A stretch of DNA of 64,000 bases, taken from positions 32,001 to 96,000 of the forward strand of contig JAZDJN010000095.1 of assembly GCA_043803945.1 (NCBI GenBank), read 5' to 3'. Numbering within the stretch: position 1 is the first letter of the stretch; each line of letters starts with the position of its first letter. The notes under the pieces are model-generated. The model saw only the letters and a list, made by a program, of their open reading frames with translations, had not been told where the DNA came from and did no database searches. This DNA comes from a bacterium (GTDB taxonomy: Bacteria > Bacteroidota > Ignavibacteria > UBA10030). Both the position numbers and the translations under genes were made by a program. Shown one piece after another: positions 987 through 17,242 of this stretch.

Positions 987-1059
<73 letters not shown>

Positions 1060-1089
1060 CATTCATTTTGTGATATCATTAAATGTTAG

Positions 1090-1152
1090 ATGTCGCGGGT
1101 TCTGAGCCGTAGGCTCATGCGCCTCTGGCGCAGAGTCTCGTCGCCCGCTCCA
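1090..1152 (+). pseudogene. Duplicated 3' end of tRNA-Gly (att-like scar), interrupted by a 30-bp palindromic insert
   Basis: ATGTCGCGGGTTC[1103-1132]GAGTCTCGTCGCCCGCTCCA matches 1030-1060 with 2 mismatches once the insert is removed. Confidence 0.85.
1103..1132. mobile_element. Twin-hairpin mini-element (family B)
   Basis: TGAGCC-GTA-GGCTCA + TGCGCC-TCT-GGCGCA inserted at TTC^G. Confidence 0.7.
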
Positions 1153-1160
1153 CGATGCTA

Positions 1161-1210
1161 AGAAGTCCGTCTTTTTACTACGCTCAAGCTTAGGTAAAAG
1201 ACGGACTTCT
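1161..1210. terminator. Stem-loop after the tRNA locus
   Basis: AGAAGTCCGTCTTTT / AAAAGACGGACTTCT inverted repeat. Confidence 0.6.
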
Positions 1211-1244
1211 ACCAACCGCCCGAACGGTTAATTCAATATCTCCC

Positions 1245-1580
1245 ATGATCACTTCAATAAATCTTTTCAACACCTCCTTTCCTCCAACGAACAAAGAGCG
1301 CATTGACCTGCTCTTTCAATGCAATACGGTAACAATCGAGCGGATTTGTTCCTCCGGCAGCAGTTCTCCCGAAGGATTCTGGTACGATCAACCAACCGAT
1401 GAGTGGGTTGTCGTCCTTCAGGGAAGTGCAGGACTCTCCATAGAAGGAGAACCGGAAACAAGAACGCTCAAGCCCGGAGAGGCGATATTTCTTCCCGCCC
1501 ACCATCGGCACCGCGTTGAGTGGACGGAGGCGCAAACTCTTTGGCTAGCGGTTCATATCAAGATAGAGAATAATTCTTGA
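1245..1580 (+). CDS. Cupin domain protein
   Basis: IERICSSG..SPEGFWYDQPTDEWVVVLQG and LPAHHRHRVEWT cupin motifs. Confidence 0.88.
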   Translation: MITSINLFNTSFPPTNKERIDLLFQCNTVTIERICSSGSSSPEGFWYDQPTDEWVVVLQGSAGLSIEGEPETRTLKPGEAIFLPAHHRHRVEWTEAQTLWLAVHIKIENNS

Positions 1581-1614
1581 TTGATACGGTAACCCTTCCC
1601 ATTTTACCTCCACA

Positions 1615-2017
1615 TTCGGGGAACACCGAGGAGCGCCTAGTATCCAAAAGAAGGACGGTGTTTCCAGCATGCCTCTGGCTGGAATCTGTATAACAGAACT
1701 GGTTTTTCTATAAAGCAGATCCCCGACGGAAGCCTTCGGGGAACAATGAGAGGTACAGGGCACCAAAAAGAAGGATAGTGTTTCCAGCATGCTTCAGGCT
1801 GCCTGCCTACGTGTCCGCCGTAGCGGACAGGCAGGGAATCTGTATAACGGAACCGGATTTTCTATAGAACAGATCCCCGATAAAAACATTCGGGGAACAC
1901 TGAGGGGTCCCCAGTGTCTAAAATAAGGACAGTGTTTCCGGTATGCTTCAGGCCGGAATCTGGAAATCGGGTTCAGATCCCTTTAGTAGATCCCCGACAG
2001 AAGCATTCGGGGAACAC
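1615..2017. repeat. Tandem array of about 120-bp REP-doublet (REPIN/BIME-like) units, about 3.3 copies
   Basis: TTCGGGGAACA recurs at 1615, 1735, 1889 and 2006. Each unit has a GTGTTTCCAGC..GCTGGAATCT hairpin and an inverted AGATCCCCGA..TCGGGGAACAC hairpin. Confidence 0.9.
1802..1835. mobile_element. CCTGCC...GGCAGG mini-element (family A)
   Basis: 34-bp extra segment present only in unit 2 of the array. Confidence 0.75.
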
Positions 2018-2180
2018 TGGCTTTAGTTATCCCTTAGCGTTTCTCGACGGCATGCTTCTTCGTATAGAATCATCAACGCATTATTGTTTTTCTGAACAAT
2101 TTTCAACAAATTTTACACGTCAAGGGAACGCAATGTTCCCTTTGTTCGTCTTATAGATTGCCTGTTCATGAGAAGGATTT

Positions 2181-2330
2181 GCCGCCAAGTGCGCCAAGAA
2201 TTGTTTATTGAGTTATTTTTCAAAAGTCTATGAAAATCTATCATATTCATATCTTGGTGTTTTGCCTGCTTGCCCGCCACGGCGGGCCTGTGCTGCCAGC
2301 CTGCTGCAGGCAGGGCGTTCTTGGCGGTTA
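2181..2330. repeat. Inverted 9-mer-repeat shell with a family A insert at 2265-2314
   Basis: Left arm CCGCCAAGTGCGCCAAGA. The right arm TCTTGGTGTTTTG|GCGTTCTTGGCGG is restored on removing CCTGC...GCAGG. Confidence 0.7.
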
Positions 2331-2388
2331 GCTCTTTTGCCAATTAGTTAGAGAATTATAAGCGTTTTTCTCATTTTCTGGAGGTACT

Positions 2389-3372
2389 GTGGATATCAGA
2401 ACAATCAACGAAATGATTCAACGCGAAAGCGCATTCGTCGACACACTCACAACCGAAGTCAGCAAGGTCATTGTCGGCCAGAAACAAATGGTCGACCGGT
2501 TATTAATCGGATTGCTTTGTAACGGACATATCCTGCTTGAGGGTGTGCCTGGCCTTGCAAAGACCCTGACAATCAAGACCCTTGCCTCTGCCATCAGCGC
2601 CAAGTTCCAGCGCATTCAGTTTACACCCGACCTTCTTCCTGCCGACCTTGTTGGTACAATGATTTACAACCAGAAGGAGGGAAAGTTCTTTACGCGGCGC
2701 GGGCCTATCTTTGCAAATTTCATTCTTGCTGATGAGATCAATCGTGCTCCCGCGAAAGTGCAAAGCGCCCTCCTGGAGGCCATGCAGGAACGACAGGTGA
2801 CAATCGGAGAAGAGACCTTCAAACTCGATGAACCGTTTCTTGTTCTGGCCACACAAAACCCTATCGAGCAGGAAGGAACCTATCCCCTGCCTGAAGCACA
2901 GGTCGACCGGTTCATGCTAAAGGTGAAGATTGACTACCCCTCGCGCGATGAAGAACTCTTAATTATGCGCCAGAACGTGTTCGGCGAACAGAAAGAGATT
3001 AAACCGGTTGTTTCACCAAAGAACATTCTTGCTGCGAGAGATGTTGTAAAAAATGTGTATATGGATGAGAAGATTGAACGTTACATCCTCGATATCGTGT
3101 TCGCAACACGGCAACCGGCTAAGTTCAAGCTGGAGAAGCTTGCACCGATGATCAGCTACGGTGCCTCTCCCCGTGCAAGCATTAACCTGGCACTTGCCTC
3201 GAAGGCCCATGCATTTATTAAGCGTCGTGGATATGTCATTCCAGAGGATGTCCGGTCGATAAGCTTTGATGTCTTGCGGCATCGTGTTGCCATAACCTAC
3301 GAAGCAGAGGCGGAGGAGATGACCTCTGAGAATATCGTGCAGGAAATTCTTAATACTGTGGAAGTGCCTTAG
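2389..3372 (+). CDS. moxR: MoxR-family AAA+ ATPase
   Basis: GHILLEGVPGLAKT Walker A, RIQFTPDLLPAD, ILADEINRAPAKVQSALLEAMQE, ATQNPIEQEGTYPLPEAQ. Confidence 0.95.
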   Translation: MDIRTINEMIQRESAFVDTLTTEVSKVIVGQKQMVDRLLIGLLCNGHILLEGVPGLAKTLTIKTLASAISAKFQRIQFTPDLLPADLVGTMIYNQKEGKFFTRRGPIFANFILADEINRAPAKVQSALLEAMQERQVTIGEETFKLDEPFLVLATQNPIEQEGTYPLPEAQVDRFMLKVKIDYPSRDEELLIMRQNVFGEQKEIKPVVSPKNILAARDVVKNVYMDEKIERYILDIVFATRQPAKFKLEKLAPMISYGASPRASINLALASKAHAFIKRRGYVIPEDVRSISFDVLRHRVAITYEAEAEEMTSENIVQEILNTVEVP

Positions 3373-3400
3373 ATATACTGCGAAAAGCGGAAAAAATAAT

Positions 3401-3570
3401 TAACCACAAGGACACAAAGGAAAAGCTATTAATAGTAATATTTTCAAATTCTTTTTGTGTAAGCTTTATTCTGTGTGTTCTTCGTGTCCTTCTCAGCCAG
3501 AGGCTGATCCGCCAAACAGACGCCTGCCTGCCGCAGGCAGGGCGGACAGGTGCGCCTGGCGCAGTGGTTA
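3401..3570. repeat. Inverted-repeat shell with nested palindromic inserts at 3493-3563
   Basis: TAACCACAAGGACACAAAG ... CTTCGTGTCCTTC|GTGGTTA. The insert begins TCAGCCAGAGGCTGATCCGCC and contains CCTGCCTGCCGCAGGCAGG. Confidence 0.75.
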
Positions 3571-3616
3571 GGCTTTTCGTCAAAGTTTCACGGAGCATGC
3601 TATAGACTGATTCATC

Positions 3617-16003: not shown

Positions 16004-17194
16004 ATGGAATCTAAAAATACCGATTTATCAGCGTTAAGAATCAACCGGGCAAACGACACATTCGGAGCTCCTCCCAAACGGAAGGTCTGGGTTGTTCTCG
16101 TATTTATTGTTTGTGTCGCCCTTTTGGCCTACGGTGCTTTTTCTCTTTATAACCGCGTTATGACGCCAGCACTCGAGGTTCGGCTCTCTTCTGCCGCTTG
16201 GAGCTCCCCCTCCCAATCAAATGCTGTTCTGACCGCAAGCGGGTATGTCGTTGCACAGAGAAAGGCTTCGGTTGCTTCAAAGGCAACTGGACGTCTTGAA
16301 TTTCTTGGAGTGGTTGAGGGAGACCGCGTGATGCAGGGCGAGATTATTGCCCGCATTGAAGATGCTGATCTCAAGGCATCGCTCAATCAGGCCCGCGCCA
16401 ACCTCCGGGTATACGAAGCTGAACTGAAGGACGCCCGGCAATCCCTCGGACGCCAGAAGGCTCTTTTAGAGAAAGCTCTTACCACTCAGGCCGAATATGA
16501 CGCGGCAGAAGCACGCTACGACCGGACGCTGGCTTCCATCGAAGCGGCAAAAGCCGCCGTTACGGGTGCTGAAGTTGCGCTGGAAAATACGCTGATCCGC
16601 GCTCCCTTTGATGGTACTGTGCTAACCAAAAATGCCGACATCGGCGAAATGGTTGTTCCCATGGCGGCAAGCGTCGGATCGCGAGCGGCGGTGGTGACAC
16701 TTGCCGATATGAGCTCTCTTCAGGTTGAAGCAGATGTTTCTGAATCCAACATTGAGCGCGTGATTATTAATCAGCCATGCGAAATTACACTCGACGCCTA
16801 TCCCGATTTTCGGTATCAAGGGTATGTGAAAAAAATTGTGCCCACCGCAGATCGCGCAAAAGCAACCGTCATGGTGAAGGTAGCGTTTAAATCGTACGAC
16901 AGCAGGGTGCTGCCCGAAATGAGCGCAAAAGTATTATTCCTCGGGCAGGGATCATCTGCCGCTCAGCAACAGGCTAAATCACTGCTCACCATCCCTGCAA
17001 GTGCAGTAGCGAAGAGAAATGGTAATGCTGTTGTGTATATCGTCCGCGAAAATAAAGCCGTCGAAGTTCCTGTTGTTCTCGGTAAAGAACTCGGGTTGCT
17101 TATAGAGGTCAAAGGGGGGGTGACAGCAGGAGACAAGGTAATCTCGACCATTACAGCGCAACTCGTGAACGGTGTCGCGGTAAAGGTACAATAA
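16004..17194 (+). CDS. Efflux periplasmic adaptor (MacA/HlyD-like)
   Basis: N-terminal TM, LTASGYVVAQR, IRAPFDGTV, VPTADRAKATV. Confidence 0.9.
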   Translation: MESKNTDLSALRINRANDTFGAPPKRKVWVVLVFIVCVALLAYGAFSLYNRVMTPALEVRLSSAAWSSPSQSNAVLTASGYVVAQRKASVASKATGRLEFLGVVEGDRVMQGEIIARIEDADLKASLNQARANLRVYEAELKDARQSLGRQKALLEKALTTQAEYDAAEARYDRTLASIEAAKAAVTGAEVALENTLIRAPFDGTVLTKNADIGEMVVPMAASVGSRAAVVTLADMSSLQVEADVSESNIERVIINQPCEITLDAYPDFRYQGYVKKIVPTADRAKATVMVKVAFKSYDSRVLPEMSAKVLFLGQGSSAAQQQAKSLLTIPASAVAKRNGNAVVYIVRENKAVEVPVVLGKELGLLIEVKGGVTAGDKVISTITAQLVNGVAVKVQ

Positions 17195-17242
17195 TCGTAA
17201 CTCCTGCTCATCTAAATAGATAACAAACCATTTTTAACCACC

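Follow-up and report, generated by a model that had tools for sequence, protein, structure and literature searches.

A 30-bp double-hairpin element with precise insertion sites in Ignavibacteria and other uncultured bacteria, and its possible link to small GIY-YIG nucleases

Two adjoining hairpins, together 30 bp long, form what is very probably a precisely inserted mobile mini-element in the Ignavibacteria genome studied here. Our reading as a whole, which we consider on balance probable, is that this element (the twin) is a non-autonomous double-hairpin mini-element, inserted precisely and without duplication at T-Y^R-A and possibly moved in trans by an Ssn-like nuclease. Two copies lie in the window, the whole stretch of 64,000 nucleotides that was analysed (Table 1). 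An initial annotation of the window had proposed a second family of mini-elements with its own target, and this was supported by other copies, empty sites, an in-frame insert and a target preference. The twin is patchy yet widespread in distant uncultured bacteria. In the phylum, 17 of the 201 genomes sampled have it, and ten genomes of Patescibacteria and other MAGs carry 2–25 copies each. Literature searches on the literal sequence, on GIY-YIG, tRNA and hairpins, on Ssn follow-ups and on Ignavibacteria repeats found no description of it.

The twin has dyad symmetry and consists of T-N-N-GCC-N3-GGC-N-N-A written twice, as two abutting 15-nt hairpins, with the dyad-symmetric core AGGC-NN-AT-NN-GCCT. 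Stem positions 2 and 3 of the units co-vary, and of the 15 matches to the N-pattern in this genome, 12 are Watson-Crick at each of the four free stem pairs (chance rate 0.4%). A reversed control pattern gave 0 matches in every genome searched. The 30-mer of copy 1 folded as single-stranded DNA into two hairpins (-11.9 kcal/mol, z -4.0), and the minimum-energy fold of the twin, at a frequency of 0.80, is two separate hairpins. The units rarely make a perfect 30-bp palindrome: the loops are exactly complementary in 8/123 cases compared with 19 expected by shuffling, and both units have identical stems in 1/123. Genome-wide the 6-bp stems are strongly over-represented (TCAGCC 41, TGAGCC 14 and TGCGCC 12; about 0.3 expected for each). 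Within the window the word TNNGCCNNNGGCNNATNNGCC occurs at two loci only, those of copies 1 and 2, whereas 100 shuffles gave no match at all. The two copies are genuine and not due to chance. An autonomous full-length element bounded by single units was rejected, single units being almost absent from this genome. A conserved dyad-symmetric sequence could also be a cis-acting RNA or DNA signal, such as a terminator, attenuator or protein operator, under selection at each site and not a selfish insert. The frequent position of the twin 9–60 nt upstream of the nuclease start codon and the G-T wobble variants on one strand only would suit a signal, but twins have no T-run, Rfam matched only tRNA and not the twin, twins also lie inside a coding gene, dead tRNA fragments and repeat arms, and their presence or absence among paralogues fits insertion better. 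We regard a signal of this kind as highly improbable.

The letters and coordinates of copy 1 stand as first read, TGAGCC-GTA-GGCTCA directly followed by TGCGCC-TCT-GGCGCA, and so does its place in a tRNA T-loop, where it splits GGTTC^GAGTC in a 3' fragment of tRNA-Gly(CCC). When aligned by eye, positions 1090–1102 differ from 1030–1043 of the intact gene by one A-to-G change, and the encoded CCA of the fragment is absent from the intact gene. Copy 2 had been described as a twin at 3493–3563 with TCCGCC as an arm of its second hairpin. A twin is present there, but that parse missed a 24-nt element that splits the two units, and TCCGCC belongs to this separate element. The flanks CCTTC^GTGGTT, the compensatory stem change (TGA/TCA) between copies 1 and 2 and the absence of target duplication were all confirmed. 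Family A had been placed later than the twin, which is the right order, but paralogues with the twin only, with the twin and the 24-nt element, and with the twin, the 24-nt element and the 19-nt hairpin indicate three layers, namely the twin, then the 24-nt element, then family A. Tandem Repeats Finder gave no repeats at 1500–2400 of the window.

Table 1. Features around the two twin copies of the window
Feature	Position	Strand	Evidence
Intact tRNA-Gly(CCC) gene, whose T-loop (TTC^GAG) shows the site of 1103 without an insert	987..1060	+	ARAGORN; Rfam tRNA 70.1 bits
Short AT-rich spacer from intact tRNA to duplicated 3' fragment, without nuclease gene	1061..1089	+	Sequence, ORF list
tRNA fragment, 5' part: variable region, T-stem 5' strand, T-loop TTC	1090..1102	+	By-eye alignment
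Twin copy 1, simple form: unit 1 1103-1117, unit 2 1118-1132	1103..1132	+	Sequence, fold, shuffles
tRNA fragment, 3' part: rest of T-loop, T-stem 3' strand, acceptor 3' strand, encoded CCA	1133..1152	+	Sequence
Twin-free arm of MITE-like host repeat, reverse complement ..GTGTCCTTGTGGTT..	3402..3420	-	Sequence, host-repeat comparison
Copy-2 left flank: host-repeat arm H1, end ..GTGTCCTTC	3470..3492	+	Host-repeat copies
Copy-2 unit 1, TCAGCC-AGA-GGCTGA	3493..3507	+	Sequence, fold
24-nt hairpin element TCCGCC-AAACAGAC-GGCGGA-CAGG between twin units	3508..3550	+	Paralogues, fold
19-nt family-A hairpin inside 24-nt element	~3522-3540	+	Paralogues, fold
Copy-2 unit 2, shortened, TGCGCC-TG-GCGCA, 5-bp stem	3551..3563	+	Sequence, fold
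Copy-2 right flank: arm H1 continued, GTGGTTaggcttttcgtc..	3564..3600	+	Host-repeat copies

The union of two detectors gave 53 elements in this genome, and a genome search with the pattern first proposed gave 39 matches. Exact filled/empty pairs without target duplication were found in four unrelated settings: MITE-like arms, tRNA T-loops, a hairpin beside a Y1 gene and an IS91-family gene. Empty sites and an in-frame coding insert, both suggested as checks at the outset, were recovered. Several dozen copies of the host repeat have no twin and read GTGTCCTTyGTGGTT, and its second arm has 7 empty copies. In the relative G013, a Y1 gene is flanked by a hairpin that is empty on one side and filled by a twin on the other. 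The in-frame insert of 30 bp (10 codons) lies at TATC^G in an IS91-family transposase gene, and homologues without the 30 bp occur as 4 copies in G004 and 1 in G040. The twin might instead be immobile alone and a module of larger repeats (MITE arms, tRNA-nuclease cassettes), its empty sites arising by precise deletion or gene conversion between copies. This would agree with the 22 of 53 elements that lie in the two arms of one MITE-like repeat (~190 bp) and the 7 of 53 in one tandem repeat, with the many tRNA-linked copies that follow one cassette plan, and with the deletion-prone nature of small palindromes. We think it quite unlikely in view of the 123 distinct flanks, which include a single-copy coding gene whose homologues lack exactly 30 bp, the same 30-mer in unrelated settings in distant phyla, and the flanks of twin-bearing tRNA copies, which match the local tRNA and not a shared cassette.

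The junction consensus over 123 distinct contexts is T-Y^R-A (-2 T in 95, -1 T or C in 110, +1 A or G in 110 and +2 A in 95). TTC^G, the target first proposed, is therefore one form of it; the preference holds, but the target is broader. General targeting of hairpin loops was not supported by folding: with the twin removed, the junction fell in a predicted loop in 29/123 contexts compared with 105/505 control T-Y-R-A sites (p 0.54). A subset of twins sits at palindrome centres, with flank stems of at least 7 bp in 4.9% vs 0.5%. Elements of the IS1397/ISKpn1 type insert at the tip of palindromic repeats (REP loops) and are full insertion sequences. Some twins resemble them in targeting palindrome tips, but these elements encode their own transposase, unlike the twin.

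Where a tRNA gene has a redundant copy next to the intact one, the T-, D- and anticodon loops of the redundant copy are strongly enriched in twins. In this genome, 4 of 38 sites are within 400 bp of a tRNA gene (0.7% expected), and a tRNA gene was within ~350 bp at 10 of 60 loci of relatives, picked from the match list with their context unseen. The xAGCC unit comes first in 20 of the 23 distinct T-loop contexts, a consistent orientation relative to the tRNA strand. The tRNA cassettes that were read through hold an intact tRNA within the same stretch, and three T-loop-like loci are without one. The idea that the twin is an intron in a sole tRNA copy was rejected; in the only case of full length (L073/L245), an intact tRNA-Ser(GGA) lies upstream. 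Viral contigs gave 14 twin-bearing stretches only, and their 400-bp flanks contained neither tRNA nor nuclease genes.

A recurring cassette combines an intact tRNA with a gene for a small GIY-YIG nuclease and a tRNA fragment that has a twin in a loop. Of five Patescibacteria-type genomes, three have twins at 10–58 bp from a small GIY-YIG gene (4 of 43 twins), and each of the four best phylum-wide homologues of a twin-adjacent nuclease (54–63% identity) is 22–38 bp from a twin. The twin-adjacent nucleases of Patescibacteria-type and Ignavibacteria genomes are mutual nearest relatives (51–58% identity). Their nearest solved relatives are UPF0213 proteins, and they form a subfamily distinct from the GIY-YIG gene C112:9366 of this genome, which is flanked by NTS-like repeats. 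Most twins have no GIY-YIG gene anywhere near them. The tRNA-linked nuclease subfamily has four assessable genes in this genome (C99, C109, C98:6286 and C41), and none of them adjoins a twin; a fifth (C22) is cut by the contig end. The four tRNA-linked twins here have no nuclease gene alongside. G043 has 7 twins but only weak GIY-YIG matches. Family-level counts of GIY-YIG and Y1_Tnp genes in 41 relatives did not separate pattern-bearing from pattern-free genomes. The adjacency of twin and nuclease could be indirect, since tRNA genes are where both are concentrated. Ssn nucleases, according to the available text, hydrolyse DNA, and joining is not known for them. That the GIY-YIG nuclease moves the twin is a tentative proposal, to which we give somewhat less than even confidence.

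Movement of the twin may also need no dedicated enzyme. The twin would then spread by copy-choice (template switching) during replication or repair at T-Y / R-A microhomology, its own hairpins stalling the polymerase. Precise insertion without duplication, the short palindromic junction word and the fact that no single enzyme family tracks the twin are consistent with this, but copy-choice leaves unexplained the strict conservation of sequence across phyla, the orientation bias in T-loops, the patchy distribution and the tight adjacency to one nuclease subfamily, and we judge it very unlikely.

In the Ssn system, as far as the available text describes it (Chenal et al. 2025, PMC11893778), a small single-domain GIY-YIG gene (cd10448) lies beside hairpin repeats, NTS/SRM, that are also dispersed in the genome, and the enzyme attaches to the single-stranded form of the hairpin and cleaves a few bases beyond it. 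Twins may be similar in this respect: some lie next to a small GIY-YIG gene in other genomes, but none adjoins the four assessable genes of this one. The NTS motif as printed, CGTCATTCCCGCGMAVGCGGGAATCYRG, is a single oriented hairpin and shares no core with the T-N-N-GCC-N3-GGC-N-N-A of the twin (PMC11893778). The available text of that paper reports no precise insertion sites and does not contain the word tRNA (PMC11893778), whereas twins have precise insertion sites and a link to tRNA genes. This genome also holds a separate NTS-like repeat, located around C112:9366.

Another class of enzyme that acts on single-stranded hairpins is the Y1 HUH transposase, and the twin could be a REP/REPIN-type element moved by RAYT or an IS200-like TnpA, a type that also inserts by a short word without duplication. 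In the available descriptions, a REPIN is two inverted REPs that form one long hairpin, and it flanks a RAYT gene (PMC3116915, PMC6006769). Twins and REP/REPIN are both short palindromic non-coding repeats, and movement of the latter in trans via single-stranded DNA is thought to occur (PMC3116915, PMC6006769). Y1_Tnp matches number 12 in this genome and are present in 35 of 41 related genomes, a twin lies 65–125 bp from a Y1 gene in two relatives, and HUH enzymes cut and join, whereas GIY-YIG enzymes are not known to do both. Against this, twin units come within 1.5 kb of just 1 of the 12 Y1 genes here, and there is no Y1 match in G044 (14 twins) or G031 (a twin). The twin next to a Y1 gene sits at the tip of a different, gene-flanking hairpin, which is empty on the other flank. 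Unlike REPINs, twins do not surround Y1 genes here and lie inside REP-like hairpins in relatives; their own hairpins stand side by side and not as one long hairpin, and they have no conserved tetranucleotide foot. We consider a Y1 enzyme an unlikely mover.

On the preferred reading of a twin moved in trans, movement or copying would proceed via single-stranded DNA, and the boundaries of the twin would be the places of breakage and joining. The cuts may be made by an Ssn-like GIY-YIG nuclease, with host repair or ligation completing the process. In tRNA cassettes, the twin would mark the junction where a small cassette, with or without a nuclease gene, entered a tRNA loop and brought a replacement tRNA end along. 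Copy 1 of the window might be such a junction, of a ~90-bp cassette without nuclease gene; copy 2 would be a twin that inserted alone in a MITE-like repeat, where two further invasions followed. A wider proposal, which we find doubtful, sees the twin as the functional end of mobile elements that move as single-stranded DNA and belong to a widespread class not described before. A very small GIY-YIG nuclease of hydrolytic type would cut at both twin boundaries and at unfilled T-Y^R-A sites in the loops of tRNA genes, so that the 30-mer alone, or else a cassette made up of nuclease gene and replacement tRNA end, could be pasted in. The complete system would have passed between Patescibacteria, Ignavibacteria and further uncultured lineages.

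Double-hairpin elements (DHEs) of fungal mitochondria were reportedly described by Paquin and colleagues in 2000. If our reading is true, the twin would be a bacterial counterpart of these elements and would rank with the smallest known mobile DNAs; it would have a defined insertion word and be common to very distant uncultured phyla. According to the available descriptions, mitochondrial DHEs (Allomyces, Schizosaccharomyces) are short and GC-rich with two hairpins, are dispersed between genes and sometimes within them, and have flanks without duplication (PMC2800124, PMC10085805). Between species, DHE copies differ little or not at all, and this was taken as a sign of transfer or strong constraint (PMC2800124, PMC10085805). 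The twin is alike in its two adjacent GC-rich hairpins, its dispersal and its lack of flanking duplication, a likeness of form drawn from description only. DHEs are known from mitochondria and the twin from bacteria, and the link to tRNA loops or GIY-YIG genes is a feature of the twin that the available DHE descriptions do not mention (PMC2800124, PMC10085805).

The present analysis extends the single-window view of the initial annotation to a distribution across phyla and a tie to tRNA-gene copies and small GIY-YIG genes. For one branch of small GIY-YIG nucleases, so far uncharacterised, the twin offers a concrete substrate that can be tested, and it bears on the role of Ssn-like enzymes outside Neisseria and on the multiplication of their hairpin repeats. 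It explains a recurring oddity of annotation, broken tRNA-gene copies beside intact ones. A precise, sequence-defined cut-and-paste module of 30 nt acting on single-stranded DNA could have practical interest.

The cyanobacterial small dispersed repeats (SDR) of Elhai and colleagues (2008) are said to be 21–27 nt long and to insert in each other and in other repeats without target duplication; they reportedly occur in cyanobacteria only, as single units of eight sequence families. By this description, the twin resembles SDR in its tiny size and its insertion without duplication, but it is double and non-cyanobacterial. A classical MITE has terminal inverted repeats, a target-site duplication and a length of ~100 bp or more, whereas the twin is 30 bp long and no filled/empty pair showed a duplication. 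Some twin copies have surely spread passively along with the repeat that hosts them.

The twin, a 30-bp element of two abutting 15-nt hairpins T-N-N-GCC-N3-GGC-N-N-A, is real, and reading it as a second mini-element family with its own target is supported by filled and empty site pairs, by further copies and by the junction word. The initial annotation described copy 1 as two abutting hairpins splitting a tRNA T-loop, and its letters and positions match the sequence exactly. This 30-mer divides GGTTC^GAGTC of a tRNA-Gly 3' fragment, and 29 bases separate the intact tRNA-Gly(CCC) gene from the fragment downstream of it. As single-stranded DNA it is predicted to fold into two hairpins (ensemble frequency 0.80, z -4.0). 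Within the window the word TNNGCCNNNGGCNNATNNGCC has just two occurrences, starting at 1103 and 3493, and it appeared in none of 100 shuffles. Copy 2 had been drawn as 3493-3563; its unit 1 stands, but the remainder was mis-parsed, because a separate 24-nt element carrying a 19-nt hairpin of family A, the other mini-element family, lies ahead of unit 2. Paralogues of copy 2 exist in three states, namely twin alone, twin with the 24-mer, and twin with the 24-mer and family A. The order of events was therefore twin, 24-mer, family A; family A had correctly been placed later than the twin, but the layer between them was missed.

Features of the two twin copies and their surroundings (window positions)
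Feature	Position	Description	Basis
Twin copy 1	1103-1132	TGAGCC-GTA-GGCTCA followed directly by TGCGCC-TCT-GGCGCA	Sequence
tRNA-Gly 3' fragment around copy 1	1090-1102 and 1133-1152	Ends in encoded CCA	Sequence
Intact tRNA-Gly(CCC) gene	987-1060	TTCGAG at the matching point; without encoded CCA	ARAGORN, Rfam
Unit 1 of copy 2	3493-3507		Sequence, fold
24-nt hairpin element in copy 2	3508-3550	TCCGCC-AAACAGAC-GGCGGA-CAGG, holding the 19-nt family A hairpin	Paralogues, fold
Shortened unit 2 of copy 2	3551-3563		Sequence, fold
Empty host-repeat arm	3402-3420		

The 24-nt element, TCCGCC-AAAMAGAC-GGCGGA-CAGG, is a third mini-element, which also occurs in the same genome at C30:33606, at C57:8986 and in a tandem repeat on contigs C60/C102. 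It inserts between the two units of the twin or within the loop of unit 2, and is in turn a host for family A.

Further copies had been proposed as a check, and at least 53 elements were found in the genome (5.54 Mb, 118 contigs, 46.5% G+C) as the union of two detectors, a lower bound since the detectors miss degenerate copies and those at contig ends. Each perfect 6-bp stem with a 3-nt loop would be expected about 0.3 times, but TCAGCC was counted 41 times, TGAGCC 14 times and TGCGCC 12 times. For the architecture T-N-N-GCC-N3-GGC-N-N-A, with N-N complementary, 78 occurrences were counted, compared with 0-34 for 31 control architectures, the highest of which is that of family A. When the four variable pairs of the 30-bp pattern were left free, 15 matches were obtained and none with the reversed control; all pairs were Watson-Crick in 12 of the 15 (chance rate 0.4%). 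The stems TCAGCC, TGAGCC, TGCGCC, TCCGCC, TAAGCC and TTCGCC were found, each with its matching 3' arm. By site, one host repeat holds 8 of the 53 elements in one arm and 14 in the other; 11 occupy tRNA T-loop-like places, seven of these within a single 99-bp tandem repeat on C60/C102, and the remaining 20 lie at other places.

The shape of the element was derived from 123 distinct, oriented copies from this genome, its relatives and other phyla; the constant T, GCC, GGC and A positions were set by the search pattern and are no evidence. Loop 1 ends in A in 114 copies and loop 2 begins with T in 115. The twin is thus dyad-symmetric about a central A|T, with the core AGGC-NN-AT-NN-GCCT. Shuffling would give 19 copies with exactly complementary loops, but only eight of the 123 have them, and identical stems occur in one. 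This avoidance of a perfect 30-bp palindrome fits selection for a pair of small hairpins over a single long hairpin.

The twin is a sequence-defined 30-mer that appears and disappears precisely at T-Y^R-A. Filled and empty sites could be paired in four kinds of setting, and all pairs lack a target duplication, as first noted for the window copies. Copy 2 lies in one arm of a MITE-like element of about 190 bp with CTAGAAACCTGGACGAAAAG-type inverted ends. Filled host arms carry the twin exactly at CCTTy^GTGG or ACTTT^GTGG. At 47 twin-free places a GTGTCCTT-like word, one base and a GTGGTT-like word follow one another, with the host-arm continuation in most, and seven twin-free copies of the other arm contain ggtgaactttGTGGTTtgatt. 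T-loops give TTC-twin-GAG in the fragment and TTCGAG in the intact gene, both here and for tRNA-Leu(TAA) on contig C98. Empty sites in relatives and in-frame 30-bp insertions had also been suggested as checks, and both were found. In the relative G013, a 144-aa Y1 transposase gene lies between two copies of one hairpin, one empty (gccacgactttcaagtcgtggac) and one with a twin at its tip. A gene on contig C65 with Y2_Tnp and Zn_Tnp_IS91 domains contains a twin in frame, at TATC^G by alignment, and its homologues in G004 (four copies, 83% identity) and G040 (one copy, 70%) are exactly 30 bp shorter.

The palindromic MITE-like repeat (window 3395-3600, C57:8830-9060, C38:1-330, C26:98900-99568) is multi-copy and frequently at contig ends, and its two arms are the main twin hosts in this genome. 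The IS91-family gene (C65:25285-26517) is single-copy and open despite its 10-codon insert, and is followed about 1 kb downstream by a Y1_Tnp match.

Over 123 contexts, T was found at -2 in 95, T or C at -1 in 110, A or G at +1 in 110 and A at +2 in 95. Judged from these junction bases, the insertion word is T-Y^R-A; the TTC^G target of the initial annotation is one form of this broader word. A palindrome is centred on some twins: flank stems reach at least 7 bp in 4.9% of twins vs 0.5% of shuffled pairings, and at least 5 bp in 13% vs 5%. Loop targeting was considered as a general rule and dropped, because in folding the junction lay in a hairpin loop in 29 of 123 cases, compared with 105 of 505 other T-Y-R-A sites of the same sequences (p 0.54).

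The link between twins and tRNA genes is strong. Four of 38 twin sites in this genome lie within 400 bp of one of its 47 tRNA genes (Gly-CCC, Leu-TAA, Asn-GTT and Ala-CGC), compared with 0.7% expected, and a tRNA gene lies within about 350 bp in 10 of 60 loci of relatives, drawn blind to context from matches to the originally proposed pattern. Twins mark the junctions of small cassettes in tRNA genes. In the recurring plan, an intact tRNA comes first, a spacer or small gene second, and last a 3' fragment of that tRNA, which has the twin at GGTTC^GARTC; the plan is seen in Gly-TCC, Gly-GCC, Arg-CCT (three genera), Leu-TAG, Leu-CAA (three tandem fragments), Thr-CGT, Pro, Met and Ala. The mirror plan has a 5' fragment with the twin in the D-loop (GTGGTT^GAA, GCAGTT^GG) or anticodon loop (CTC^GAAAA, TTTT^AAGG), then a gene and the intact tRNA. 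Of 23 distinct T-loop contexts read along the tRNA strand, 20 have the unit with A at position 3 ahead of the other, so the twin is functionally asymmetric there. Every cassette examined has an intact tRNA within the fetched stretch. This includes the stretch of one full-length twin-bearing tRNA-Ser(GGA), which ARAGORN recovered only after the twin was removed. The fetched stretches of the T-loop-like loci L167-L169 contain no tRNA gene.

The cassette gene encodes a GIY-YIG protein of 79-100 aa. In five Patescibacteria-type genomes (0.7-1.2 Mb), four of 43 twins, in three genomes, lie 10-58 bp from a small GIY-YIG gene. When the twin-adjacent protein of locus L246 was compared with 201 genomes of the phylum, the best four homologues with listed twin positions (54-63% identity; G014, G151, G155 and G186) were each 22-38 bp from a twin. 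Twin-adjacent proteins of Patescibacteria-type genomes and Ignavibacteria are mutual closest relatives (51-58% identity over about 78 residues), and the C112 nuclease of this genome, with NTS-like repeats on either side, groups apart from them. Several observations speak against a simple pairing of twin and nuclease. Most twins are far from any small GIY-YIG gene. The four assessable nuclease genes of the tRNA-linked subfamily in this genome (C99, C109, C98:6286, C41) have other hairpins or nothing beside them and no twins, and its tRNA-linked twins have no nuclease gene beside them. Genome G043 has seven twins and only weak GIY-YIG matches, and family-level gene counts did not separate genomes with and without the originally proposed pattern. 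Y1 genes track twins no better: a unit is near one of 12 Y1 transposase genes in this genome, and no Y1 match was found in G044 despite its 14 twins.

DNA may be broken and joined at the two boundaries of the twin in single-stranded form. The cassette layouts are consistent with an exchange at a single boundary. At T-loops this would leave the intact tRNA ending in cassette-borne sequence and the displaced original end following the twin; this end is recognisable because the old downstream flank and CCA are kept, here and at locus L161. The D-loop side would be the mirror arrangement, and a solo twin would result from exchange at both boundaries. By analogy with SsnA, an enzyme that binds the single-stranded form of its hairpin DNA and cuts a few bases beyond the hairpin (PMC11893778), the small GIY-YIG nuclease is the best candidate for a putative, unproven cutter, and joining would be left to host functions.

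Ssn/SRM, a hairpin repeat with a small GIY-YIG gene, is the nearest system in association, but its motif differs from the twin and the word tRNA is absent from the text of its paper (PMC11893778). Double-hairpin elements of fungal mitochondria are nearest in form: they are GC-rich, consist of two hairpins, lack a flanking duplication and are nearly identical between species (PMC2800124, PMC10085805). The REPIN/RAYT features tested on twins (Y1 proximity, folding, palindrome form) were not found in them, and literature searches returned no description of the twin. Small dispersed repeats of cyanobacteria resemble it in size and nesting. We rate the twin among the very small non-autonomous hairpin elements.

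Of 41 genomes from this family and order, this one included, 20 contain the originally proposed pattern. Across the phylum, 201 genomes were sampled and 17 have the general pattern (seven of 10 others of the family, six of 12 in other families of the order, two of 26 in the rest of the class and one of 152 in the rest of the phylum), with no control match throughout. A scan of one genome per species gave at least 122 matches, at least 64 of them complete twins, and ten of these genomes hold 2-25 copies each. Among the matches listed, complete twins occur in MAGs labelled Patescibacteria and many of its candidate phyla, Ignavibacteriota, Bacteroidota and Elusimicrobia, with Verrucomicrobiota, Binatia, Thermodesulfobacteriota, Bdellovibrionales and uncultured Proteobacteria as further labels; these are MAG labels of the first 80 loci and can be wrong. 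The incomplete matches listed look like chance, most of them being from G+C-rich genomes (Variovorax and Stenotrophomonas, for example). In viral contigs only 14 copies were found.

Other arrangements of small GIY-YIG genes were also observed. At C99:20400-21200, C109:3000-3900 and C98:6100-6600 and 16600-17200 they lie directly at tRNA genes with duplicated tRNA fragments, whose loops hold other hairpins and no twins. The gene at C112:8900-9900 has GTCATTCCCACGCAAGTGGGAATCCAG-type repeats on both sides, close to the published Neisseria NTS motif, and would be a canonical Ssn/SRM pair in this genome. At L246 (G047:C172:8800-10900), L236 and L237, the GIY-YIG frame enters the 5' end of the downstream tRNA-Ser gene, with its stop codon in the D-arm, and the cassette recurs in tandem. 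In two related genomes, at G016:C2:365000-369200 and G004:C9:1492200-1494300, near-identical small GIY-YIG genes form arrays of 7-14 with a period of about 300 bp. Window 1600-2030 holds three or four loose repeat units of about 125 bp (..ttcggggaacac..gtttccagcatgc..ggaatctg..cagatccccga..), for which Tandem Repeats Finder reported nothing; one is broken by GC-rich hairpins at 1800-1840. Words akin to these units (..gatccccga..tcggggaac..) lie near GIY-YIG genes on C98 and C101.
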